Source: Chiloscyllium plagiosum (Eukaryota). From it: a DNA stretch of 64,000 nt. The DNA lies in assembly GCF_004010195.1 (NCBI RefSeq), contig NC_057725.1, forward strand, positions 57,320,323-57,384,322. Direction: 5' to 3'. The translations under genes and the position numbers were made by a program. This document shows positions 5,262 through 62,178 of this stretch, piece after piece; the stretch's first letter is position 1; the number at the start of each line of letters is the position of its first letter. The notes beneath the pieces are model-generated. The model saw only the letters and a program-made list of their open reading frames with translations. It did not search any database and was not told the origin of the DNA.

Positions 5262-5465
5262 AAAAATCACACAACACCAGGTTATAGTCCAACAGGTTTA
5301 ATTGGAAGCACACTAGCTTTCGGAGCATCGCTCCTTCATCACTATCATCTAATGAAGGAGCGATGCTCCGAAAGCTAGTGCTTCCAATTAAACCTGTTGG
5401 ACTATAACTTGGTGTTGTGTGATTTTTAACTTTGCACACCGCAGTCCAACACCGGCATCTCCAAA
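5262..5465. mobile_element. Penelope-like fold-back element, family A
   Basis: Arms ~5262-5341 / 5351-5427; perfect 12-bp TSD TCCAGAAAGGAA (5250-5261, 5466-5477); ribozyme core mutated to CTAATGA. Confidence 0.85.
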
Positions 5466-5883
5466 TCCAGAAAGGAAGTATTTTTAATTTTATTCTTTTT
5501 ATTTTGTGGCATGGTGTTTTCTTTAGGCCCTGCAATGAGTCCCTCTCTGTCTCTCGCATTCAGTTTGTCAGCTTCTGTGGCCTACAAATTACTGTAAATC
5601 TCTTCTGGCCCATCTCAGATTGCTAGTCCGTACATTTGGGGTTTTGTTGAGTTCATTGGCGTTATCATCATGTCTTCCATCAGCTGTCCCAGATCTCCAG
5701 TTTTGTCATTGCCTTGAGCCCATCTGACAGGGCTGCACAAACTGGTTGACACTTTATATTTGTTCAATGTTCTTGTCCTGCTGTCTTTATCACAAAAGTT
5801 ACAAGTCATTTTTCTCCTGCAGACTTGACGTCGTTCAACTTGCTCCAAGTTGTTGACTGGATTATCTGAGTTGTTGTCTGACA

Positions 5884-7572: not shown

Positions 7573-7690
7573 GAAAAGCAAATTACTGCGGATGCTGGAA
7601 TCTGAAACCAAAAGAGAAAATGCTGGAAAATCTCAGCAGGTCTGGCAGCATCTGTAAGAAAAGAAAAGAGCTGACATTTTGAGTCGTGAC
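7573..7690 (-). mobile_element. Penelope-like 3' fragment, family C, truncated inside the hammerhead
   Basis: Homologous to 51166-51306; 13-bp TSD CTTTCAACC(A/G)TGA at 7560-7572 and 7691-7703. Confidence 0.75.
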
Positions 7691-9498
7691 CTTTCAACCG
7701 TGAACTGCCTCTTTATTCTCTGTAGCTTTAAGCAGTGTTGAACATTCCTTCAGTCCTCTTTTAGTAGCTGTGCTTCTACACATTTCTTCTACAACATAAA
7801 ATCTCAATTCCCCTGACATCATTTCACAGGATTGCAGTCTGGCTTATACTGTGTACTCTCTGTAAGATGATTGCCTGTAATGAGTGTTTCATGTCACAGG
7901 TAACATGGCAATAGCAAGCCTAAAAGCACTCTTGTGCAATTTCCATCTAAACATTTTCGAACTAATGTGTTTCAGGCTGCTTTTGGTGACTTTCCCCATT
8001 TCCCTAGAAAGGGAATGGAATGCCTCTTTAAAAATAAATATATCAACAGAAGTTTCAGTCAATGAATTGCGCAGAGCTTGCCAGAATGTGGTCAGAAAAC
8101 CAAGCTGGAGATGTCAGGAGACAAGCCTGGGCTTGCCCTGGTGTGATGCGTGAGTCACACATCAGGCTTGTGACTTCTGTTGTTGTTATTGGTCTGCACC
8201 ACTCATATAGAAAGTAGAAAATCTGTGCCTGCACTTGCATTTGAAGTAAGTTTCAATCACTGATTTGTTTTAAAGAGTTGTTTGAGCCGAAACAAGTTAA
8301 TTTGAGCTCATTGCATTGCACTGCATTATCATTCTGACTCCATGTTCCGTTGGTCATAAGTAGACATAAAGACACAAGAGTAGACAGACGTAAAAAAAAT
8401 CACTTTGTTCAGTTCTCTTATTTTGTGGAAATTTAGGGCCAGATATTCCACTAAAGTGAAATGTAAAAAAAAATTTGCATTTAGATGCCACTTTCCTCGT
8501 TACTCGAATGTTATTAAAATATTCCTATTCCTTACATATCACTCATCATTGCTGATGGAAAAGTGGAGGAGCCTAAATTGGGTGTGACTTCCTGGTGGAA
8601 TTGTGTCACTTGTTAGTTTAATATTTTGGTACTGACATCACCAGACACTGCATGAGGCAAGAAAGTGGGATTGCACCAACTTGTGAAACATTTGTCTATT
8701 ATGTCCAAACATCTGATGAATGTGATTGCAAACAGACTTAATAAGGACTTAATGGCTGGAAAATTTAGAGTTTCTCCTGGTTTCCTGGAATTGGAAGCAC
8801 ATTAGAACACCCTCCCTATTTACACATATATTGAAAATTTCCATCATACTTCGGTGAGGTACTGCCAATAGACTGGATACAAGTCTGAGGATCTGCTGAT
8901 CATTTAATACAGGATTGCATGACAATGTGGTTAGATTTTAAATGCACCTCTCAGACTGATCCTGGGATTGTGACCTGGCCACCCACTCCAGAACCACAGG
9001 AGCTTTCCTTATATTGTTTATAAAGATTGGACTGCTTCTGGAAAAGGTGATGGAACTATGATGTTAGTGTTATACATGCAAATCGAATGCAGATCTTCTT
9101 CGCTGCTGGGTCCTAAGTTTACATGCAACTCTAACTGCTGATTGAAAGTTTCCTCACTCAACCCAGGTCCATGAAATTAGTCCATCTGGGTCATTTTAAC
9201 CTAAATCATAGCAATACTCAAGTAGACCACAACGATGGCCAAGTCAGATCTGGACAAATTGTATTGATAGTGAAGAGATTATGTTTTTATTTCTAATCCA
9301 TGTTCATCCTGGGAGTGCTTAATACTTACCTTTTGTAGGAAGAATTGTGACATTTTGCTTTCCCCAAGTTGGAGATCAGTATCTGACTTCCTGGTACCAG
9401 ACGAGTGTACAACTTTAAACTAGTCAAGAGGGTGGCGGTGTAGTTATTTGTCATTGAGTGCCCTTTGAGGTGGAATCACAAAGTGGTAAAGATTAACC

Positions 9499-9789
9499 AT
9501 TAGATTACTTTACAGTGTGGAAACAAGCCCTTCGACCCAACAAGTCCACACCGACCCGCCGAAGCGCAACCCACCCATACCCCTCCATTTACCCCTTACC
9601 TAACACTACGGACAATTTAGCATGGCCAATTCACCTGGCCTGCTCATCTTTGGACTGTGGGAGGAAACCGGAGCACCCGGAGGAAACCCACGCAGACACG
9701 GGGAGAATGTGCAAACTCCACATAGTCAGTCGCCTGAGGCGGGAATTGAACCCGGGTCTTTGGCGCTGTGAGGCAGCAGTATTAACCAC
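9499..9789 (-). mobile_element. HE1-like V-SINE
   Basis: Head, V-domain and tail intact; CpG-rich, so probably young. Confidence 0.92.
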
Positions 9790-9916
9790 GGTGGCACAGT
9801 GGTTAGCACTACTGCCTCACAGCGCCAGAGACCCGGGTTCAATTCCCACCTCAGGCAACTCTGTGGACTTGTTGGGCCGAAGGGCCTGTTTCCACACTGT
9901 AAAGTAATCTAATCTA
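9788..9916 (+). mobile_element. Internally deleted HE1-like SINE fused head-to-head with the previous copy
   Basis: Head GTGGCACAGTGGTTAGCACT...GGGTTCAATTCCC joined directly to tail TGTGGACTTGTTGGGCCGAAGGGCCTGTTTCCACACTGTAAAGTAATCTAATC. Confidence 0.9.
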
Positions 9917-13425: not shown

Positions 13426-16318
13426 ACAAATTCGATAATTTGTTTTTGTTATTTCCATAGTTGTTCATGAATGTTTAAAATCAACCAATTGAGCATCAGG
13501 CTCCTTGGTGTGGGTTTGAAGATTTGATGTAGCATTGTACAGATGTTTGCAGGCAAACTGCAGTGACATGAATATTTAGTCAGGAAAGGCTCCCAAGAAT
13601 TATTGTACGTAGCCCGACTTGCAGAGAACAACCTGCTGATACCTTGCAACAAGACCCAAGGCAGGTCATTCCTATCGCTCACTTACTGCACTTACACTGT
13701 GGGTAAATAAATTATCCTTGACCCTGAACTTTGGTGGAACTGGCTGTCCTCCAGTTAAACTCTGTCTTCCAGTAACCTGGCTCAGGACTGTGTTTTCTTA
13801 ACCTCTTGTTATTTTATTTCATCCAATGAGACTAATATGATCACTGAGTGTATATAGTGAGTTGTTATGGTATTTTCATAAAAACCAAGAGTACATTCCA
13901 TAATTTTCTTCGTCTCTCCTCTGCATTAAAAATAAATGAGTTGTCTTGGAAGCTAAACTATACACATGATTCCAATGTCACTGAGTTCTGTGTGAGATGC
14001 AATCAGCAGTAAAACATGGATTCCTGAGGCTTCAGTGATCACAGTGATGGATGGGATGCCTGGGATAGCAGTTCCAGAGGTCTCCTACTCATAGCTTAGA
14101 AGTCCTATTGTGAGTTCTGGGGGTATATGGCGAGGAGATCATTCCTCAAGGAAAGGAGACCAACTTCCTAAGGCCAGCTGAGCATGGATGGAAATGGCCG
14201 AGACAGTCCAGGGGAGTGTGCAACCTGAAAAGACTTTGCCAGGAAGGTGCAGGAGCTGAGTGTGGGCACTGTGGAGTGGGGGAAGAAGAAAGGCTGAGAG
14301 CAGAATATTTTCAGCTGCCAATCCCACATTATGACACAGCATTTCTCATATCTCACTGCTTTTATTTCATTCTCCCCTCCTTATATTCTCATCTGGATAG
14401 CCAACTCTCCTCCTCACACCTGCACCTTCCACAAATGTTGTCTTCCCCTCTTCTACACACAAGTTATGCTTTTTAAACATTTCTGCTTTTTCTCCTTATA
14501 GAAGAAGTGAATATATAACTTGGGAAAAAGGCAGGGAGCTGGCAGATAGATGGGTCAGTGCCCCTCCACTGATAGGTACCTTGATGATCCAGTGGGAAAT
14601 AAGTCTTGTTCCAGGGTGCTCCAAATGTCAGCGACAATGATATTCTGGCATATTGAGAACGCTGTTCCTCATCCTGTAGCATTGTTGTGGAGTAGATGTG
14701 TACTGTACATTGATTGGTGTGGTGTCATGAGTTTTCTTTGAGGCTGGCGCATGACTGGTGCCCATGTCTGTGGACATAGGCTGCATGGGTCTGGTGCCCA
14801 TGGAGTGTACCCTCAAATGTTTGGTGTTCAGTGTGCAGGTCCTTTGGGCCAGGTGGTGAGCTGAAGTCATCAGGTGGCCACTCTGTTTGCCCTGTTGAGA
14901 ATTCTCATGTCTAGTTTGCTGGGAAGTCAGTGCATCTACCATGTCAGTTGGTGTGCGCGAACCCTCCACACCGTTCGGCTGAGAGGAGATACTGATGGGG
15001 CATGATTTGGGATTCCTGGCCAATTTTCACTGTCCCAGGGTAAGAGCACCCTGCACCCCTGAGCTTTGCATTACTGCAAGGCATCTCGTAGCTGCTTCAC
15101 CCCAACCTCCTGCAATTTTCACAGTGTTGGACCATTTCCCCGTGACTTGTAATTCATGACTTCTCAGAGGAGTCATAAACCATAGTAAGGATACAACTAC
15201 TTTTTGAAAGGTGAGTCTACATGTTCTTAACAGTTCCCCATGATTCTTCATGCTCCCTTTATTCCGATTTAGTGCAAACTCATAACCCCCACTGACCCCA
15301 TCACCCCTTATACTCTTCATTCTAATTTGATACTAAATTATACACATGTCTCTAGTTCCTTCCCAAAGCCACTCATATTGTCAATGCCAACTCAATGGCT
15401 CATTTTACAAACATAAACTCAGCAAGGGCTTCTGTTTGAGCACTGAATTGTTGACTGTGCTTGATTGACATTGTTATTGTAAATTGTTCTTTCTGTGATC
15501 TGTTCTGTCAATGTCTCAAAGTTATTTTGGACACAGTTATCAGGAATGAAATGGTTTAGTCCTCTGTTATTTGGTACGTTATCAGTCTGTCTGATTGACA
15601 TAGTTATAGGGTTGTAGGAACAGCAGCCATTCTTTAAAGGAAGACTTGTGAATAATATTTTTTTCTCTTTGTCAGCACTTCCACACTTGCTATTTTTATT
15701 AGATGGCTCATTGATTATCTGCACAGTGCCCACTGGGTGATTGGTCATGGAAGGGGCAGTGAGTTGGCATGGACAATGAAGTGCCATAGTGGGGGGAATG
15801 AGTTGACTTTTAGAATCTGAGGGACCATGGGGCTATTTAGGGGGTACAATATGGAATTAAGTTGGCATGGAACATGATGTGCCTTTGGGCTCTTGGGGAG
15901 GTGGGGAGGGGGTGGTCATGAGTTGGCAAGGATAGGGGAGTCACAAGTTTTGTTTTGCATTGGTGTCAACTGGTATGAATACTTGTGGAAGGTATAATGG
16001 GCCAATAGGATGTGAGGGCTGAAGGGTCTAGAATTTTATAAAGCAGCTGAGTAAGAGGCTCCAGAGAAGTGAAATGGGCTTTTCAGGTAGCCCACCTCAG
16101 GACCGGTCCATTCATGTGGTTGCTTACTCTCAGCTTCCAGGATTGGCAGGCCTGACTACACACCACATGCTCTCTCTAGGTCCAGGTTCAGCAAGTCGTG
16201 AGATTTACTGGCTGGATCTACGCACCTCGAGCCAATATCCGGCCCATATAATGACACAGGAGGCTATTCCACCCGCCATGCTTGAGACAGCTCTTTGATA
16301 GAGCTGTTCAATTAATTC

Positions 16319-16531
16319 AAAAAGTGTGGCACTGGAAAAGCTCAGCAGGTCAAGCAGCATCCGAGGAGTAGGAGAGTCGATGTTTTGGGCATAATGTCAT
16401 TCCTGATGAAGGGTTTATGCCCGAAACATCGACTTTCCTAATCCTTGGATGCTGCCTGACATGTTGTGCTTTTCCAGCACCACACTTTTGGACTCTGACT
16501 CTCCAGCATCTGCAGTCCTCACTTTCTTCCA
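16319..16531. mobile_element. Penelope-like fold-back element, family B, with hammerhead core
   Basis: Inverted arms; CTGATGA (16403-16409)-A-GGGTTTATGCCC-GAAA (16423-16426)-CATC; TSD TTCAATTAA(T/C)TC at 16307-16318 and 16532-16543. Confidence 0.82.
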
Positions 16532-18190: not shown

Positions 18191-19530
18191 CGAGTCATAA
18201 AGTCCTACAGCAGAAAACAGACCCTTTAGTCCAACTAGTGCACACCAACCAGAATTCCAAACTAAACTAGTCCCACTTGGCCCATTTCCCTCCAAACCTA
18301 TCCTCTTCATGGACTTATCTGAATGTTGTAACTGTACCTGCATCCACTGGAAGTTCATTCCATGCACAGACCGCCCTCTGTGTAAAAGAGTTGCACCTCA
18401 GGTCCCTTTTCATTCTTTCTACTCTCACCTTAAAAATATGCCCCTTAGGTCTGAACTCCCTAACCCTAGGGAAAGGATCCTCATCATGATTTGGATGCAA
18501 GCATAAGAGGTACAGTTAGTAAGTTTGCAGATGACACCAAAATTGGAGGTGTAGTGGACAGATTACAACAGGATCTGGAGCAGATGGGCCAATGGGCTGA
18601 GAAGCAGCAGATGGAGTTTAATTCAGATAAATGCAAGGTGCTGCATTTTGGGAAAGCAAATTTTAGCAGGACTTATACACTTAATGGTAAGGTCCTCGGG
18701 AGTGTTGCTGAACAAAGAGACCTTGGAGTGCAGGTTGATAGCTCCTTGAAAGTGGAGTCGCAGGTAGATAGGATAGTGAAGAAGACGTTTGGTATGCTTT
18801 CCTTTATTGGTCAGAGTATTGAGTACAGGTGTTGGGAGGTTGTGTTGCGGCTGTACAGGACATTGGTTAGGCCACTGTTGGAATATTGCATGCAATTTTG
18901 GTCTTCTTCCTATCAGAAAGCTGTTGTGAAACTTGAAAGGATTCAGAAAAGATTTACAGGGATGTTGCCAGGGTTGGAGGATTTGAGCTATAGGGAGAGG
19001 CTGAACAGGCTGGGGCTGTTTTCTCTGGAGCGTCGGAAGCTGAGGGGTGACCTTATAGAGGTTTAGAAAATTATGAGGGGCAAGGATAGGGTAGGCAAAG
19101 TCTTTTCCCTGGGGTTGGGGAGCCCAGAACTAGAGAGCATAGGTTTAGGGTGAGAGGGGAAGATATAAAAGAGACCTACGGGGCAACTTTTTCACGCAGA
19201 GGGTGATATGTGTATGGAATGAGCTGCCAGAGGAAGTGGTGGAGGCTGGTACAATTGCAACATTTAAGAGGCATTTGGATGGGTATATGATTAGGAAGGG
19301 TTTGGAGGGATATGGGCTGGGTGTTGGCAGGTCGGACTAGATCGGGTTGGGATACCTGGTCGGCATGGACGGGTTAGAAGGGTCTATTTCCGTTCTGTAC
19401 ATCTCTATGACTCTATGACTCTATTCACCTTGTTTCATGGTTTTGTAAACCTCAATAAGGTCACCCCTGAACCTCCTACGCTCCAGTGAAAAAAAGTCCC
19501 AGCCTTTCCAGCCAATTGTTATATCTCAAA
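18191..19530 (-). mobile_element. CR1 LINE 3' fragment (18191-18480 and 19421-19530) split by a plus-strand CR1
   Basis: Minus ORF 18315-18500 FTQRAVCAWNELP; collinear continuation CTATTCACCTT...GGTCACCCCTGAACCTCC after the insert. Confidence 0.8.
18487..19423 (+). mobile_element. CR1/HER1-like LINE, 5'-truncated, includes the RT catalytic motif
   Basis: ORF 18491-19066 SKFADDTKIGG...KCKVLHFG...EQRDLGVQV; premature stop at 19064-19066; tail (CTCTATGA)n. Confidence 0.95.
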
Positions 19531-19899
19531 CCCTCCCCCTCCCAATCCCAGCGAGTTTTACAAGTTCCTCAACCATTCAATGTACCAAAAATAAACTTGC
19601 AAGAGACTGCAGCATGCCAGGTAATGATTTCTTTTTGTTTAGAAGCAGTTATAGATGTTCGTTGAACTCTACCACATGATGTCCATAAATACCAATGACA
19701 GAGTTGCCAGGAGGAAACAGCAAAATCTTAACAGGGCTTGTCACTGCCTGTGGAGGTTACAAATAAAATGGAGTGCAATGGCCACCCTATACATATCCCC
19801 AAAGTGTGCTCTATGCTGCTGCAGAGAAGGATGCCCCATTTACAGGCAACTGATTCAAGTTTCTTTTAGCACTGCCTAATGCAATATTGAATACAATTG

Positions 19900-29391: not shown

Positions 29392-29776
29392 AGAATTCCC
29401 TGCAATGCAGGGAGAGGCTATTCAGCCAATCACATTTGCACCAGCTCTCTTAAAGGGCACGCTACCCTATCCCCACAAGGTAAAATCAAGGGCTGCAGAT
29501 GCTGGAAACGAGAGTCTAGATTAGAGTGGTGCTGGAAAAACACAGTAGGTCAGGCAGCATCAGAGGAGCAGGACCACAACCCTCCATTTCCCATGGGTAA
29601 ACCACCTAAATTGCACATCTTTGGACTATTGAAGGAAACCAGAGCACCTGGAGAAAACCCATGAAGACATGGGAAGAATGTGCAAATCCACACAGACAGT
29701 CACCTAAGGCTGGAATCAAACCTGGGTCCCTGGCGCTGTGAGGCAGCAGCGCTAACCCCTGAGCCACTGTGTCACC
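29392..29776 (-). mobile_element. HE1-like V-SINE interrupted by a family-B fragment
   Basis: Head at 29700-29776; tail at 29392-29478. Confidence 0.82.
29479..29573 (-). mobile_element. Penelope-like family B 3' fragment (no ribozyme, not inverted)
   Basis: Matches 62011-62100; flanked by direct repeat CCACAA (29473-29478, 29574-29579). Confidence 0.75.
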
Positions 29777-31980: not shown

Positions 31981-32887
31981 AGCTAATAGCTGCTGCAACT
32001 GAGCCAAAGGAGACCTGCTGACTGTCTTGTCAGCTCCCCTCCGATGTCTTTGCATGGTCTACCATATAAAAGGCATCAATCTAGTGAGGGTCTCCTGCAT
32101 AGTCACAAATGCAACCTCCTCAGCCTAACCTGATGGAGTTGTTTGTGTCCCTACTGGATAAGGTCAGGGATGACAAACCCTCTTCTTCCCTATTGGTGAG
32201 TAATGGCAACCTCCCTCCACTCCCCCACCCCTGAGGGGAGGGAGACCAAAGCCCCTTGGGTCCCTTCTCACTTACCATCCATGGCTCCAGTGATGGAGTG
32301 AAGGGCCCATGTCAAAACCAGCAGGTTCTGATAGTTCAAGCTTTCCAAGGTGGCTGCCTCCTGTTGCTGCTGGAGCCAGGGCATCAGAGAGAACTTGGGC
32401 AGACTCCTCTGCCCTTCACTGTGTTCTCCACATGATCTCTGGCACCGCTGCTAGACGTTCCCCTGCTTGCCTCTCCATCTCCCATCAGCTCATTAACAGC
32501 TGAACAGAGACTCCTCAAGTGTACTGGCCTCAGCACTCCGGGTCTATGAGACCTTAGTTGTTTCTTCCGCTTGCAGATGTGAGCCTATGACACTGTGTGA
32601 CCCCTGGCCTTGTCTGCATTTGTGAGGTGCTGCGTTGGACGAATGAGTTCAGAGATGCTCCTGGGTTGCTCTGATTGAGGTGTGGGTCCCCTCTAAACAC
32701 AAGATTTCCATTCCTTGTCTCTTAAAGGGATAGGAACCCTGACAGTAGGCAGCAAATTGCTTTATGCACCATTAAATCTAGCTGGCACTCCCAGAAACAA
32801 CTGATGCAGTAAGTCGCCTCTGCTTTACTGACCCATTGTTAAAAATCACACAACACCAGGTTACAGTCCAACAGGTTTATTTGGAAG

Positions 32888-32922
32888 CCCTAGCTTTCGG
32901 AGCACTGCTCCCTCATCAGGTG
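32888..32922 (-). ncRNA. Minimal type-I hammerhead ribozyme motif (mirror copy)
   Basis: Minus strand CAC-CTGATGA-G-GGAGC-AGT-GCTCC-GAAA-GC-TA|GGG; perfect stem II, one stem I mismatch. Confidence 0.6.
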
Positions 32923-32931
32923 GTTGGCAAC

Positions 32932-32966
32932 TACCTGATGAAGGAGCAGTGCTCTGAAAGCTAGTG
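32932..32966 (+). ncRNA. Minimal type-I hammerhead ribozyme motif
   Basis: TAC-CTGATGA(32935-41)-A-GGAGC-AGT-GCTCT-GAAA(32956-59)-GC-TA|GTG; predicted cleavage after 32963; activity untested. Confidence 0.65.
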
Positions 32967-34127
32967 CTTCCAAATAAACCTGCTGGACTATAACCTGGTG
33001 TTGTGTGATTTTTAACTTTGTACACTCCAGTCTAACACCGGTATCTCCAAATTATTACTGACCCGTGGCTGAAAAGCATTTTAGGATGATGTCAGAGCTG
33101 GATAGGTGTGCTATTTATACAAGTTCTTTCTTTAACAAAACTTCCTTAGCAACTTCCTCTCACATGACTCCATTTTCCTTTCATTGGTAAGCTGGGTTGA
33201 TCAGCTAATACATATTTGAAACGGTTAAGGTGGAGACTGGTGCTTTGATTTTCTGAACACCCTTCCTAATTCCTTCTTGAAAACCAGCCTTGTAAAACAG
33301 CGTTTGTGCATTGGTTTGTCTGAATCATGGACAAAACTTTGATTCAACCTGATCAAGCAAACTGTGGCACGAATGAAAAACCCTTGCTTATATTTTGATA
33401 GATATGTCTTTCATGTTGTTTCATATCATTCATAATTCAAGACAAATTGTGATATTTTCATACATGGGATAATAGCCATTATATAAGTGGAAAAGTTATT
33501 CAGTGGTCTTAAAACTGTTGCACTCTTCATTTTTAAGAAGTTTCTTTTTCACCTCTGCCTCTTTTCATCCTCTTCAACCTTGCTGTGCTCCCACATTCCA
33601 TCCATTGCCTGGATCCTCAGCTCCTCATCTCCCAACAGCAGTGCAAGGGCTTTCCTTTTGGAAAACAGTCCAGTTCCCCAGTGACAGCAGAACTAATGAA
33701 TCAGAAATGTCATAACATGTTAATGCTGAAGGGTTCAATTACTTCAAATAGCCATGCGTGACAGAAGCGATCAATACTATTTACTTGGCTCCCGCACGCT
33801 ATGCAAACTGCCGCGGACTATATCTGCAACCTTTGGCACACGAACCTGGCAAAAAAACATGGGGTGCAGTCTCTACAGTTTCAACAGGTGGTCAGGTGCA
33901 GTGTTGTCAACTGTTGCCAGATCATTTGCAGACAACTGGCAGCTTACGCCTCATACAACCACAAACCGTGCCTTTCTTGTGTTTCTGTACAACGTGCAAA
34001 AGCGACCAATGATCATAATCAAGCAAAACACAAACCTACAGCCAAAGAAGAAATGATGGGGAAGGTGACTGAAAGCTTGACCAAAGCCGTGGATTTTAAG
34101 AGAGGTCTTAAAATGGAAGAAAGAGAT

Positions 34128-34480: not shown

Positions 34481-36225
34481 GTAGGGCAGGAATTTCAGAG
34501 CATGGCTTCAAGCTGACTGAAGATATGGCAGAAATGTTCAGGTGCACATGAAGCAAGTTTTATCTTTATTTAGTATCATCCCTTCTTCAGCCTGACACTT
34601 GAATAAATCACAGCTAGAATTCCAGCTTACTCACTTCAAGGCCGTGTGATGCACTCTGGCAGTTGGATGCTGACAACGCTTTCTTGATATTTAAAGAATT
34701 AATTAAACTTTTCTAAAACAGACATATAATGAAATCAGCAGAGGCGGCTGTTTTTCATTTGTTGCCATTTACTTTTGGCAATGTACGCATTCAAATGAAT
34801 AGTGCACTGTTGTGCAGTGATCCTTTTGCTTTGCTGGGTTTGACAGAGCTCTTGGGGAGCTAGTCCCCCTTGGCAGCAGAGAATTTTGGGGGCATGGAGA
34901 TTTTCTGACAGTTTGGAACAATTGGAGCTTTCAATTTTCTCATTTTAAGTTAATGTCAAGCCATCTCATGAATCAATCAACCAGCGTACTGCTGTGTGAG
35001 CTTCATATGGAGTAAAACATAGGCGTGCGCTGCAATACAGTGACATCTTTGAGATGCTATGAAACCACAAAACTTAGTCTGAATTCTGAGCGGGGGAGGC
35101 AGGGGGTCCCACTGCCATGGCCGAAAGAGGAGGTGCTTGTGGGCAGCAGGACCTCAGCCACATCCTGCCAGCAGCAGGCAATCACATGGCTGCTTTCCCT
35201 AGTCAGGAGAGTGGTCTCTCTCCTCCAATAGCTGTGTCCCAATCTGATGGCCAGCAGCGCCACCATCAACCCTGGCCATTGCTGGCACTGCACCTGGCAG
35301 ATTGATAGGTGTGTGCTCTCAAATTCATTGAAATGGGATCTTTGGGGCAGTGGGGCCGATCCTGGCAAAAGGTGTGGTAATCATCGCCAGCTGGTGATGC
35401 CAGTGTGCTGAGGTGACCATTGGCACTGGGAGCGGGCTGGCACGGCCTCCATGAGCACCTAGAAACATGCTCCCAAATGCACTCTCACACCCTGCAACAG
35501 AGATAGGAAATAGCCTTTAGGTGGCCATTTACGCGACTCAGTTGGGTTCTGTACAGGGTGGGCTTTCAAAGGTGAATGGCCAGGCCGTGGGAAATGATGG
35601 ACAGTTTCCTGCATCACCATGCTAGCCCCTGTCACCAGCTCATCCCCAGAGGGTTTGTGGTGTCTATCACTGCAGCCAGCACCATCAGTGATTTGAAACA
35701 ATCTCTTCGATGTTTAAAGTCATTTCATTTTCATTACTATTCTATGAGGAAAGCATAGTTTGGTTCGGACAGATGGCAGGTTTGTACAGTTACTCTCCCT
35801 GACTTACACTAAAGGAAAGAAGGAGCTTCTTGGTATTTTTATAGCACCTTTCAGAACTTTGGGACATCACAACGTGCTTTACAGCTAATCAAGTAAACTG
35901 CTTCCAAGTATTGTGGCATAGACTAGGATCATTCTACCCTGTGGCATATCCTCCTGCTGAAGTGAATGCACCAGTTAGCTGGTAACAGGCCTTGTTCCAT
36001 ATTAAATACTGCTGTGCCTGTACAGACATGTAAATAATCAGTGTACCATGTATGGGGAAGAACTGCTTACAGATAGCAATAACATTGTTACTGGGAACAT
36101 TGTGACCGGCAGTGTGTAAAAAATGGCTTTGAACATAATGGTGAACTGTAGATAGACTAACCGCATCAGGGTAAAGTATACACTGGGCTTGAATACAAGG
36201 CTGCACACATTGCACCTGTAGTTAG

Positions 36226-36437
36226 GAGATAGTAAGGACTGCAGATAGTAGAATTGAGAGTCAATAGATGTGAAGCTGGAAGAGCGAGTCAGACGGCATT
36301 TAAGAGGCAAGAAAGTCAACATTTCGGGCCGAAAAGAGTAACTTTGGCCTGATGAAAGGTTTTGGCCCGAAATGTTGACTTTCCTGCCCCTCGGATGCCA
36401 TCTGACCTGCTGTGCTCCTCCAGCTTCACATCTATTA
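36226..36437. mobile_element. Penelope-like fold-back element, family B, older
   Basis: Arms ATAGATGTGAAGCTGG...GTCAACATTTCGGGCC / GGCCCGAAATGTTGAC...CCAGCTTCACATCTAT; CTGATGA at 36349-36355, GAAA at 36369-36372. Confidence 0.78.
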
Positions 36438-36579
36438 ACCCCCCATGTACCCATGACATTCCACCAAAACCAAGGCTGGGAGAGGAGGACTCTCAACTCC
36501 ACCCTATTACGCTCAGATACAAATGCCATGTGGCATTGGTCCATGGCTTTTACTGTGACTGGGGGAAAGATATCAGACA

Positions 36580-38334: not shown

Positions 38335-39405
38335 GTATGACTTCAGTGGGATGTGGTTTCAGTGGAATATGATTACAGTGGGGTGTGATTTCAATAGCAG
38401 GCTGTGATTTGAATGGGATATGATTTCAATGGGGTATGATTTCAGTCGTGGGGTGTGATTTCAATGGAGATGATTTCAATGGTGTTTGATTTCAGAGGGG
38501 TGTGATTTCATTGGGGTTTGACTTCAGTGGGGTGTGATTTCAATGGTGTGTGATTTCAGAATTGCGTGTGATTTCAGTAGTGGGGTGTGATTTCAGTGGG
38601 GTGTGATTTCAATGAGTATGGTTTCAGTAGTGGGGTGTGATTTTGGTGGGGTATGGTTTGAATGCGGTGTGATTTCAATGAGGTTTGATTTTAATGGCGT
38701 ATGATTTCAGTAATGNNNNNNNNNNNNNNNNNNNNNNNNNNNNNNNNNNNNNNNNNNNNNNNNNNNNNNNNNNNNNNNNNNNNNNNNNNNNNNNNNNNNN
38801 NNNNNNNNNNNNNNNNNNNNNNNNNNNNNNNNNNNNNNNNNNNNNNNNNNNNNNNNNNNNNNNNNNNNNNNNNNNNNNNNNNNNNNNNNNNNNNNNNNNN
38901 NNNNNNNNNNNNNNNNNNNNNNNNNNNNNNNNNNNNNNNNNNNNNNNNNNNNNNNNNNNNNNNNNNNNNNNNNNNNNNNNNNNNNNNNNNNNNNNNNNNN
39001 NNNNNNNNNNNNNNNNNNNNNNNNNNNNNNNNNNNNNNNNNNNNNNNNNNNNNNNNNNNNNNNNNNNNNNNNNNNNNNNNNNNNNNNNNNNNNNNNNNNN
39101 NNNNNTTTGAATGGTGTGATTTCAGTGGGATATGGTTTTAGTGGAATGTGATTTCAGTGGGATATGGTTTCAGTGGAATGTGATTTCAGTGGGGTATGGT
39201 TTCAGTGGGATGTGATTTCAGCGAGGTGTGATTTCAGTAGTGGAGTGTAATTTCTGTGGGGTATGGTTTCCATGGAGTGTGATTTCAGTGGGGTATAGTT
39301 TCAGTGGGACGTGATTTCAGTGGAGTATAGTTTCAGTGAGATGTGATTTCAGTGGGGTGTGATTCAGTTGTGTACGATTTCAGTTATGGGCTGTGATTCA
39401 GTGAG
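38335..39405. repeat. 16-bp minisatellite (consensus ~GTGATTTCAGTGGGGT)
   Basis: Tandem units on both sides of the N gap; alternating variants after the gap. Confidence 0.92.
38716..39105. other. Assembly gap (390 N)
   Basis: N run. Confidence 1.
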
Positions 39406-51165: not shown

Positions 51166-51306
51166 GCTTCTGAAGAAGGGTCACTGCACCTGAAACATTA
51201 ACTGTGCTTTCTCTACACAGATGCTGCCAGAGCTGCTGAGGTTTTCCAGCAATTTCTGTTTTTGATTCAGATTTCCAGCATCCACAGTTCTTTCAAGTTT
51301 ATTTTT
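51166..51306 (+). mobile_element. Penelope-like 3' fragment, family C, beginning at a hammerhead core
   Basis: TT-CTGAAGA(51170-76)-A-GGGTCACTGCACCT-GAAA(51192-95)-CATT-AA; TSD AGCACAGA at 51158-51165 and 51307-51314. Confidence 0.78.
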
Positions 51307-52396: not shown

Positions 52397-52630
52397 TCAA
52401 GATTAGAGTGGTGCTGGGAAAGCACAGTAGGTCAGGCAACATCCGAGTAGCAGGAAAATCGATGTTTCGGGCAGGAGTCCTTCATCAAGAATGACAGTCA
52501 TTCCTGATGAAGGGCTTTTGCTTGAAATGTCAATTTTCCTGCTTCTCGAATACTGCCTGACCTGCTGTGCCTTTCCAGCACCACTTTAATCTTGACTCTA
52601 ATCTCCAGCATCTGCAGTCCTCACTTTCAC
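52397..52630. mobile_element. Penelope-like fold-back element, family B
   Basis: ~100-bp arms centred on GAATGAC-A-GTCATTC (~52497); CTGATGA at 52504-52510; TSD TTAGCC(G/A)TATACT at 52383-52395 and 52631-52643. Confidence 0.85.
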
Positions 52631-55469: not shown

Positions 55470-55732
55470 CATTTGAACCAAAACCTGCAACCCATTCTAA
55501 AAGATAAAAGAATTAACAGCAATCTATGTTTGTTCAATATATCATTTCAGCTGCATGACACTGTAATCTTTTGCTATAAATTCTGTGTCTTATGATCCTA
55601 TTCCACAGCTACCTAATGAAGGAGCAGCACTCCAAAAGCTAGTACTTCCAAGTAAACCTGTTGAACTATAACTCGGTATTGTATGACTTTTAACCTTGTC
55701 CACCCCAGTCCAACACCGGCTCCTCCACATCA
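55470..55732 (+). mobile_element. Penelope-like family A 3' end, non-inverted, degenerate ribozyme
   Basis: TAC-CTAATGA-A-GGAGCAGCACTCC-AAAA-GCTA-GTA followed by the family-A tail CCAGTCCAACACCGGCTCCTCCACATC; 5' boundary uncertain. Confidence 0.7.
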
Positions 55733-57270: not shown

Positions 57271-57344
57271 TGTAGCTATTTTTCTGGAACCAGGAGTTGT
57301 AGTTGTATAGCCATGCCCAGCTAGGATTACCTCCCCTGTTGATC

Positions 57345-57560
57345 CAGCTGAGATTGGCTGAGAGCTCATGGCCTGGCTACGATTGGCTGAGTGCCTTTGG
57401 CCAGCTGCGATTGGCTGAGTGCTTTTGGCCTGGCTGTGATTGGCTGAGTGCTGTTGGCCCAGCTGTGATTGGCTGAGTGCTTTTGGCCGGCTACGATTGG
57501 CTGAGTGCCCTTGGCTAGTTGCAATTGTCTCAGTCCTTTTGGCCCAGCTGTGATTGGCTA
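57345..57560. repeat. 28/29-bp minisatellite, 8 units, each with a CCAAT box on the minus strand
   Basis: GATTGG at 57352, 57381, 57409, 57438, 57467, 57495, (57523 degenerate), 57552. Confidence 0.92.
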
Positions 57561-59099: not shown

Positions 59100-60510
59100 G
59101 TTAGTATTTATTGCCCATCCCCGGGTAACTCCTTTGAGAAGTCAGGAAGTGAGTCACAGAATTCTCAGCCACAGTATGTAGGTGGCTGGGCCAGCTCAGT
59201 TGCTAGGCAGTGATAACCTCCAGGATGTTGATAGTGGGGGGACTTCAGCAATGGTCACACCACTGAAGGTCAAGGGGTGACAGATAGATTCTCTCTCTTG
59301 TCAGAGATGATGTGGATGTGCTGATGTTGGAACGGGATGGATAAAGTTAAAAGTCCTGTTGGATGATCATACCATTTATGTGGAACAAATGTTACATGAC
59401 ATTTATCTGCACAGGCCCATATGATGAACATGAACTGCTTCATTATGTGCGAACAGTGCTGAACATTATGTAATAATCAGTGACCATCTCCACTTCCAAC
59501 AGTTTACTTGATAAAGCAGCTGAAGATGGTTGGGTCTGAAATATTATCCTGAAGAACTCTTACAGTGATGTCCTACTGTGAGATGTTTGACCTCCAACAA
59601 CCACAGCCATCTTTCTTTGTGCTAAGTATCATTTCCAACCAGCAGAGAGTTTTGCCACTGATTCCCATTGACTCTTGTTTAGCTGGAGCTCCACAAATGC
59701 TGCAGCCTATCAAATGCAGCGTTGACATCAAGGACAGCCGCTCTCGTTTCCTCTCTTGAATTCAGTTCTTTTGTCCATAGTTGGATCAGGACTCTAACAA
59801 GATCAGGAACTAAGTGAGCCTGGCAAAACCCAAACTGCGCATGAGTGAGCAAGTTATTATTAAGCAAGAGTCACTCGTTGGAGTGATGACAATACTTTCC
59901 ATCACTTGGCTGGTTGGAGTAGACTGATGGGATTATAATTGGGTGGGTTGGATTTGTACAGCTTTTTGTGTGCAAGAAATACCTGAATAATTTTCCACGT
60001 TATTGGGGAGATACTAACGTTGAGGTTGCACTAGAACAGCTTGACAAGTTCTGGAACACACATCTTGTCTTCAGTATTGCAAAAAACATATTGTGAGGGC
60101 CCAAACTCTTCGCAGTATCCAGCGCCTTCAACCAGTTCTTCATATCATGTGGAGTGAATCGAATTGGTTGAAGACTGGCATCTGTTTATGCTGGGGAGCA
60201 CTGGAGGAGGCTGAAATGGAACGTCAACATCAATCTTCTGGCTGAAGATTGTTGCAAATTCTGGGGGGGCTGAAGATATTTGTGAGTCAGTTGAACCGAA
60301 GGGTCTGTTTCCATGCTGTACATCTCTATGACTCTATGACACTAAGTCTGAAGCGCTCAGACATGATCCATTGATAATGGGATTTCTTAGGTCTGTCTGT
60401 CACTAACTGCTGAGTATACAAGTAGTCCTGTGTTGTAGCTTCACCAGGTTGACACCTCATCTTTAGGTCTACCTCGTGCTGTTCCTGGCATGCCCTCCTG
60501 CACTCTTCAT
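59100..60510 (-). mobile_element. Degenerate CR1/L2-group LINE (RT domain), with a CR1 tail fragment (+) at ~60285-60340
   Basis: ORF 59679-59867 LLTHAQFGF...DL...W...LN...VLDVNAAFDRLQH; tail TTTATTGCCCATCCC at ~59107. Confidence 0.75.
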
Positions 60511-62010: not shown

Positions 62011-62178
62011 AAAAACAAGGACTGCAGATGCTGGAAACCAGAGTCTAAACTAGAGTGGTGCTGGAAAAGCACAGCAGGTCACGCAGCATCCAAGGAGCAG
62101 GAAAATCAACTTTTGCCCGATTTTCCTGCTCCTCGGATGCTGCCTGACCTGCTGTGCTTTTCCAGCACCACCCCACGC
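62011..62178. mobile_element. Penelope-like fold-back element, family B, ribozyme core deleted at the axis
   Basis: Arms GTGGTGCTGGAAAAGCACAGCAGGTC...GGAAAATC / GATTTTCC...GCTTTTCCAGCACCAC; TSD TCC(A/G)AAGTGGT at 62000-62010 and 62179-62189. Confidence 0.82.

Follow-up and report, generated by a model that had tools for sequence, protein, structure and literature searches.

A palindromic insertion at positions 32838-33054 of the window, the whole 64,000-nucleotide stretch of Chiloscyllium plagiosum DNA that was analyzed, carries a hammerhead ribozyme motif on each strand. Is this unit a mobile element that supplies an active ribozyme, or is it what the insertion of another element left behind? 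The window DNA is of a vertebrate type and rich in repeats, including LINE-like fragments and short interspersed repeats. The insertion is most likely a dead, one-off product of an endonuclease-bearing Penelope-like retrotransposon, with two short copies of the end repeat (pLTR) standing head to head within a target site duplication (TSD). The preliminary description correctly recognized a Penelope-type minimal hammerhead; the element belongs to a known kind of by-product and is most likely inert.

Structure of the focal insertion

The unit contains two inverted arms of 89 nt each, 32838-32926 on the minus strand and 32928-33016 on the plus strand, which are 93% complementary (they differ at 6 of 89 sites) and are separated by a single G at 32927. 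Both arms are Penelope end repeats that start 7 nt before C3 of the hammerhead core (C3 minus 7), and the left arm ends at the proximal 3' end of the family. The letter preceding this start in a longer family copy is A (55605), which indicates that the axis G is a changed or non-templated base. Only the right arm continues into a tail (33017-33054, plus strand). The locus had been presented as a ~215-bp palindromic retro-insertion; the palindrome is indeed formed by both arms, but it covers 179 nt, and the final 38 nt have no pairing partner. The TSD previously given as 10 bp is exact at that length (32825-32834 and 33055-33064), and an inverted-repeat and TSD comparison equally allows a reading of 12 bp with one CpG-type mismatch (32825-32836 and 33055-33066, plus strand). 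The 220-nt unit folds as one hairpin of -148.9 kcal/mol (z -23.65), and none of 200 shuffles was equally stable.

On the plus strand of the right arm, a poly(A) signal AATAAA (32973-32978) is followed by a poly(A) addition site (32991-32993) used by RNA of other family copies and by a GT/T-rich stretch (32996-33013), which, from its sequence, would take the place of a downstream polyadenylation element. The AATAAA of the left arm lies at 32876-32881 on the minus strand, as identified from sequence and alignment. The commonest family variant of the hexamer, ATTAAA, occurs in about 20-26% of family DNA depth.

According to Arkhipova et al. 2013 (PMC3846280) and Craig et al. 2021 (PMC8557442), Penelope-like insertion units comprise a pLTR, an adjacent inverted pLTR, an optional 31-bp tail, and a TSD of 8-10 bp; in endonuclease-positive elements, the pLTR is head to head with an inverted, 5'-truncated pLTR, and a 30-40-bp tail is present at one end. 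The focal locus combines a head-to-head end repeat, a one-sided tail of 38 nt, a TSD, and a hammerhead motif, and it has every testable non-coding feature of the endonuclease-positive unit. It differs in that no coding body lies between the repeats and the arms are cut to 89-127 nt, and TSDs here are 10-13 bp long. A six-frame motif scan and a Pfam search of the 75 stop-to-stop frames of ≥95 amino acids in the window found no Penelope reverse transcriptase (RT) or GIY-YIG frame, and no host exon was identified among the window frames by Pfam. The only one of the 75 frames with a match, a weak RVT_1 match at 18470-19063, belongs to a LINE-like repeat unrelated to the focal element. Metagenome and viral contigs were searched for exact 20-nt matches and likewise gave none. 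Since no Penelope coding frame was found, the tie to an autonomous element is solely through the RNA motif and the anatomy.

Hammerhead motifs on the two strands

A hammerhead motif was confirmed on each strand, at 32932-32966 on the plus strand (right arm) and at 32888-32922 on the minus strand (left arm). In the plus motif, stem I (32932-32934) leads into the core CTGATGA, which begins with C3 at 32935 and is followed by an extra A and stem II (GGAGC/AGT/GCTCT); the 3' part reads GAAA-GC-T-A, with a palindromic AGCT helix III, H17 at 32963, and stem I' at 32964-32966. The minus motif has C3 at 32919 and a fully paired stem II. Cleavage is predicted after 32963 on the plus strand and after 32891 on the minus strand. 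As had been noted, each motif contains a wobble or mismatch, namely, a G-U at the first stem II pair and a U-G in stem I on the plus strand, and an A-G mismatch in stem I on the minus strand. The family has G-C at the first stem II pair, where C makes up 52-58% of the DNA depth at 32955. The pattern CTGANGA-N10-22-GAAAGCT has three matches in the window (the two focal motifs and one at 1364) against 0.07 expected, and none of 100 shuffles reached three.

Comparison by eye with Fig. S3 of PMC4209133 reveals that the motif fits the consensus row of minimal type I hammerheads of Penelope elements, as previously proposed. The shared features are CUGANGA, one extra base, a G-C first stem II pair, GAAA, a palindromic loopless helix III, and a 3-bp helix I. 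The core boxes, extra base, G10.1-C11.1 pair, palindromic helix III, and NUH site are all present on the minus arm, and the plus arm has them as well, but with G-U at 10.1-11.1. The turtle row of the figure has the same GC-U helix III, with AAUAAA just after helix I; no cartilaginous fish is among the 56 rows. The same 2014 study describes dual minimal hammerheads on opposite strands and a truncated element with a second, opposite-strand motif at its 5' end; its pairs are 100-700 bp apart, whereas the focal cores are 15 nt apart.

An Infernal-type model search, the check suggested in the preliminary description, did not recover the motif. Rfam gave no match at the gathering score across the whole window, and the five matches obtained up to E=10 around the element included no hammerhead family, as is expected when helix III is not closed. 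The snoRNA and microRNA families matched at the element were rejected as chance hits on a hairpin. Elsewhere in the window, a hammerhead-like string at 59520-59546 (CTGAAGA...GAAA-TA-TT, with palindromic ATAT and a poor helix I) has no other window copy and may be a decayed third family or a product of chance.

Related insertions in the window

The focal family occupies four loci in the window, namely, the palindromes at 1284, 5262, and 32838 and a single arm at 55606. The palindrome at 5262 (5262-5466) has a 12-bp exact TSD and a different center from that of the focal copy. The one at 1284 (1258-1451) is older and belongs to a related subfamily, with its tail on the left. The single-arm copy (55575-55732, plus strand) also belongs to a related subfamily and is longer, having kept upstream sequence that includes a TATAAA at 55575-55580. 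A second hammerhead group occupies seven loci, with palindromes at 16317 (16317-16531), 36260 (36215-36439), 52397 (52397-52630), and 62055 (62011-62178) and single arms at 7580 (7573-7699), 29480 (29480-29585), and 51170 (51168-51306). Its layout is that of the focal family (one tail, a 10-13-bp TSD, and arm starts at C3 minus 7), with a different sequence that lacks AATAAA behind the ribozyme. Neither arm of the palindrome at 62055 retains the core.

A TSD of 10-13 bp with at most one mismatch was found at 7 of the 11 hammerhead-family loci in the window; none was found at 1284, 29480, and 55606, and only weak, non-abutting candidates were found at 36260. In all seven window palindromes, which represent two sequence families, exactly one arm bears a tail, and no two palindromes share the same center. 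Of the 14 palindrome arms, 5 start at C3 minus 7 or 8. The other nine start further in, except the right arm of 36260, which may start 12 nt further upstream. Both arms are complete, with one base between them, in the palindromes at 32838 and 52397.

Long inverted arms flanked by a TSD are also what a miniature inverted-repeat DNA transposon (MITE) would show, its terminal inverted repeats (TIRs) resembling a hammerhead by chance. This explanation is extremely unlikely. The ends are asymmetric because of the one-sided tail, the TSD length varies from 10 to 13 bp, the single arms at 51170 and 7580 were inserted with TSDs of their own, the motif agrees with the Penelope consensus, and the poly(A) site of the sense RNA falls within the arm. 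The arms are accordingly not a pair of DNA-transposon TIRs.

Inverted and tandem arrangements of other kinds also occur in the window. At 9499-9913, a full copy of a short interspersed repeat (~300 bp, with several window copies) lies head to head with an internally deleted inverted copy, which indicates that fold-back insertion is not restricted to Penelope ends. At 18976-19536, a LINE-like fragment is followed by its own 102-nt inverted piece (79%), resembling a 5' inversion or a second insertion. Minisatellites include arrays of a 16-nt unit at 38335-38711 and 39113-39384 and of a 29-nt unit at 57344-57559. No tandem array is present at the focal locus, where the arms are head to head.

Family copies in the DNA of three species

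Four public runs were matched to the right arm and its flank at 85% likeness, with the matched stretch beginning at 32928. The DNA runs of three species yielded 66,443, 66,581, and 62,658 family contigs. Among the rows listed, the loose 3' ends in all three species cluster at 33016-33021 and at 33052, followed directly by AT-rich consensus flank, so the family has two fixed 3' ends about 35-36 nt apart. The fold-back joints vary across the family. Among the 13 fold-back joints listed, with 91 further joints beyond the listing, 10 combine an arm start at 32928-32933 with a second arm truncated at 32961-32999; the matched stretch itself begins at 32928, and the clustered starts may be an edge effect. 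About 370 contigs per run continue upstream of 32933 and resemble the longer copy at 55606. The two fixed ends, together with centers that differ from copy to copy, indicate that the palindrome is likely formed anew at each insertion.

Species B and C have contigs that align with the right flank of the focal locus, with 17 of 267 and 12 of 272 letters differing, respectively, and that reach 21 and 26 nt into the tail, which is below the 31-letter bar for bridging. Since these contigs run from the flank into the tail, the insertion likely predates the split of the three species. No empty site appeared among the contigs of the three species' DNA runs. Rare joints that go back 86-89 nt, from 33018 or 33021 to 32933 (zero to three contigs per run), possibly represent head-to-tail pairs of the tail-less unit, an arrangement that would allow a ribozyme dimer.

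Predicted masking, and sequence decay, of the ribozyme

The preliminary description suggested that the element offers a hammerhead whichever strand is transcribed. In folding calculations, forcing the hammerhead fold (helices I and II with an open core) onto the palindrome costs 55.2 kcal/mol on the plus strand and 54.9 kcal/mol on the minus strand, compared with 6.5 and 12.0 kcal/mol in single arms. Whichever strand is transcribed, the antisense arm comes first, and each transcript has a single sense ribozyme, where two are required. The ribozymes in the palindrome are thus predicted to be masked by the long hairpin. A single arm alone is predicted to prefer pairing of the 5' side of stem II with sequence behind the cut, and the active dimer, at -9.3 kcal/mol, is much weaker than the best homodimer, at -31.6 kcal/mol, in secondary-structure energies that include no tertiary term. 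Hairpin masking, a single sense ribozyme per transcript, and a weak dimer fold together make a functional hammerhead unlikely, and the two-strand proposal is not borne out. In published work, minimal hammerheads did not cleave as monomers and cleaved little as dimers; the review PMC6765202 covers the dimer cleavage of Lunse et al.

G12 of the catalytic core (32956) is A in 12.0, 13.9, and 12.0% of family DNA depth in the three species, and the CpG G at 32951, in stem II outside the core, is changed in 12.6, 9.5, and 9.7%. G12 is thus changed as often as a CpG outside the core, and the extra core conservation expected of a functional ribozyme is in part missing, a comparison that concerns the single position G12, the other core positions being mostly absent among the 40 of 120 rows listed. 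The hammerhead is most likely a passenger of the pLTR that decays without visible selection.

These results bear on the proposal that the 220-bp palindrome is itself a non-autonomous, retrozyme-like unit whose hammerheads process RNA from either strand. Units of similar size and layout occur at seven window loci, the copy number is very high, and non-autonomous hammerhead-bearing Penelope derivatives do exist. Li et al. 2026 (bioRxiv 10.64898/2026.07.22.740005) report non-LTR retrozymes, including in the one chondrichthyan sampled, and describe them, like the focal unit, as non-coding pLTR-derived sequence with a type I hammerhead. Those retrozymes, however, are head-to-tail tandems in which two ribozymes can pair, whereas the focal unit is head to head; a retrozyme identity was rejected on this ground and for want of a tandem array at the locus. 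Propagation as a unit is also made unlikely by the centers, which differ in seven of seven window palindromes and across the family, by the cost of the hammerhead fold inside the palindrome, by arms that start downstream of the putative promoter, by a poly(A) site that precedes the tail, and by the decay of G12 and the loss of both cores at 62055. A non-autonomous element of this kind is therefore very unlikely, and the Penelope-like insertion product remains the favored explanation.

RNA of the family and its poly(A) site

A 2% sample of one single-cell run with poly(A) priming contained 2,838 RNA reads that matched the family, mostly in the sense of the hammerhead. Only 18 of them are at least 99% alike to the focal copy, and the unique flank is covered about one read deep or not at all, which indicates that the matched reads stem from other family copies. 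The reads cross the ribozyme site uncut. Read starts and ends do not accumulate at the cleavage site, but with poly(A) priming this cut would escape notice, its 3' product amounting to only ~30 nt and the poly(A) stretch. Poly(A) loose ends follow position 32990 in 431 of the 2,838 reads and position 32993 in 602, which is 1,033 in total. These ends represent one site, 13-15 nt past the AATAAA at 32973-32978, and the DNA behind it is not A-rich. A poly(A) site thus lies just behind the ribozyme in the family. Both insertion ends are downstream of this site, so the insertion templates would be RNAs that read through it. The 5' loose ends of the reads form at least three groups, two resembling the upstream part of the copy at 55606 and one unrelated, and a few loci may therefore dominate the RNA. 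The A-to-G changes at 10 places in RNA, compared with 3-8 in DNA, were not taken for RNA editing, as many copies contribute reads.

In run X21, 140 reads join unrelated upstream sequence, before 32939, to a truncated family copy, and these reads probably derive from a host transcript that ends at the poly(A) site of the element. It is very improbable that the focal copy itself was kept by the host, as a source of hairpin RNA or as a two-way poly(A) and termination cassette. Each arm has AATAAA, a cleavage site, and a GT-rich stretch, other family copies supply poly(A) sites (the 140-read group included), and the insertion is likely common to the three species. Against such a use, the focal copy itself accounts for next to none of the RNA in this 2% sample of one run, its arms have diverged at 6 of 89 sites, and no host exon was identified.

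Among the 56 minimal hammerheads of Fig. S3 in PMC4209133, inspected by eye, AAUAAA occurs within ~15 nt after the cut in 9 and AUUAAA in 2 more; that paper labels the region only as AU-rich and does not mention a polyadenylation signal. A literature search, with subscription papers, Repbase, and Dfam outside its scope, found no publication that connects Penelope hammerheads with poly(A) signals.

Formation of the palindromes

By the accounts of PMC8557442 and PMC11167929, the origin of inverted ends and tails in Penelope-like elements has yet to be explained. For the insertions described here, a likely course of events would begin with the element's protein nicking both target strands ~12 bp apart, as the TSD suggests. 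Each freed 3' end would then prime reverse transcription at one of two internal sites on a pLTR RNA that traverses the tail, the top strand being extended by the antisense of the tail-less arm and the bottom strand by that of the tailed arm. Both cDNAs would run towards the 5' end of the sense RNA, for only 90-125 nt and at most to ~7 nt before the core, which is likely the 5' end of the RNA. The two cDNA ends would finally be joined and filled in, each templating the other, to give a head-to-head palindrome with a variable center. The two priming sites appear to be used one per strand, since seven one-tailed palindromes out of seven would have a probability of ~1 in 128 under random equal choice. 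The arms include the intact cleavage site, which indicates that the template was uncut RNA.

A system with similar properties is the Poseidon element PAc of Anolis carolinensis (Frangieh et al. 2024, PMC11167929). In PAc, two internal RT starts 111-118 nt after the start of stem II define the tail, targets are AT-rich, and internal two-site priming with extension of both strands is demonstrated in vitro. The focal family shares the two-site tail, its spacing of ~110-118 nt after stem II (110 nt from the start of stem II to the end of the tail in the focal copy), and AT-rich targets. The PAc ribozyme depends on the protein of its element, insertion in vitro proceeds without the ribozyme, and no RNA ends were seen at the cut site. 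The reading frame of PAc starts at stem II, whereas the ATG within the focal core meets a stop codon after eight codons.

The tail carries the 3' strand of a stem with 32981-32989. This stem is intact with the family majority letters at 32983 and 33033 and is broken twice in the focal copy. A 7-9-bp stem at +45 to +49 occurs in 5 of 10 tailed arms, where 6-20 of 500 shuffles were as good; the focal arm and three other tailed arms had a stem no better than shuffles, and the score at 51170 came from a different stem. The stem is found in both hammerhead families with different sequences. With this modest support, it may mark the priming sites.

A possible, although doubtful, alternative with the same Penelope origin is that the inverted arm arises by fold-back, a cDNA annealing to itself near its end, being copied back, and being trimmed at the proximal site. 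PMC3846280 interprets inverted palindromes at junctions in this way, as self-priming. Most of the joints listed pair one complete arm with one variably cut arm, and both focal arms share T at the 32950 position, where the family has C in 55-67% of DNA depth. Conversely, the longer arm may be tailed or tail-less (16317 and 62055 versus 36260), both arms are complete at 32838 and 52397, and both target strands were extended in vitro in PMC11167929. The data presented here are compatible with twin priming and with fold-back self-priming alike.

Twin priming can be extended, tentatively, to an LTR-like view of the end repeat, with a TATA box, start site, hammerhead, AATAAA and poly(A) site, GT-rich stretch, and two priming sites in this order. 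Both target strands would prime just downstream of the 5' end of the transcript, run off at its start, and join; the palindromes would then be twin "strong-stop"-like cDNAs whose centers record the start site, and the role of the hammerhead, 10 nt ahead of the poly(A) signal, would be to sever the polyadenylated end. Counted from the first base of the TATAAA at 55575-55580, the position equivalent to the common start of the two focal arms lies 31 nt downstream. A TATA box and its start site are spaced in this way, which would make the arms run-off copies of the transcript's 5' end. The TATA box is present in one copy only, just beyond the part matched by RNA reads, and 24-29 nt of the upstream part of that copy resemble loose ends of the family RNA reads. 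In addition, 275 and 452 family RNA reads extend upstream beyond the proposed start, so these RNAs do not begin there. An RNA start further upstream is expected for a 3' repeat, yet it lends no support to the run-off model. The layout of Drosophila Penelope also differs from this reading, with a start site ~120 nt before the hammerhead, rather than ~7 nt before the core, and a 75-bp intron that begins 46 bp after the start and ends at helix I. A CAG before the core was considered as a splice acceptor that sets the arm start and was rejected, as the focal arms have CAA at that position and start upstream of it. Neither a strong-stop nor a twin-priming model was found in print within the search scope given above.

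Implications for the family

Publications already describe the motif, the inverted arrangement, and the tail, and the discovery value of the focal locus is small. The family, on the other hand, provides very short, independent insertion products by the tens of thousands, from which both priming sites, the stops, and the junction are readable. The poly(A) site behind the ribozyme provides a concrete candidate job for the minimal hammerhead, the removal of the polyadenylated end, and pLTR stubs can lend 3' ends to host transcripts.
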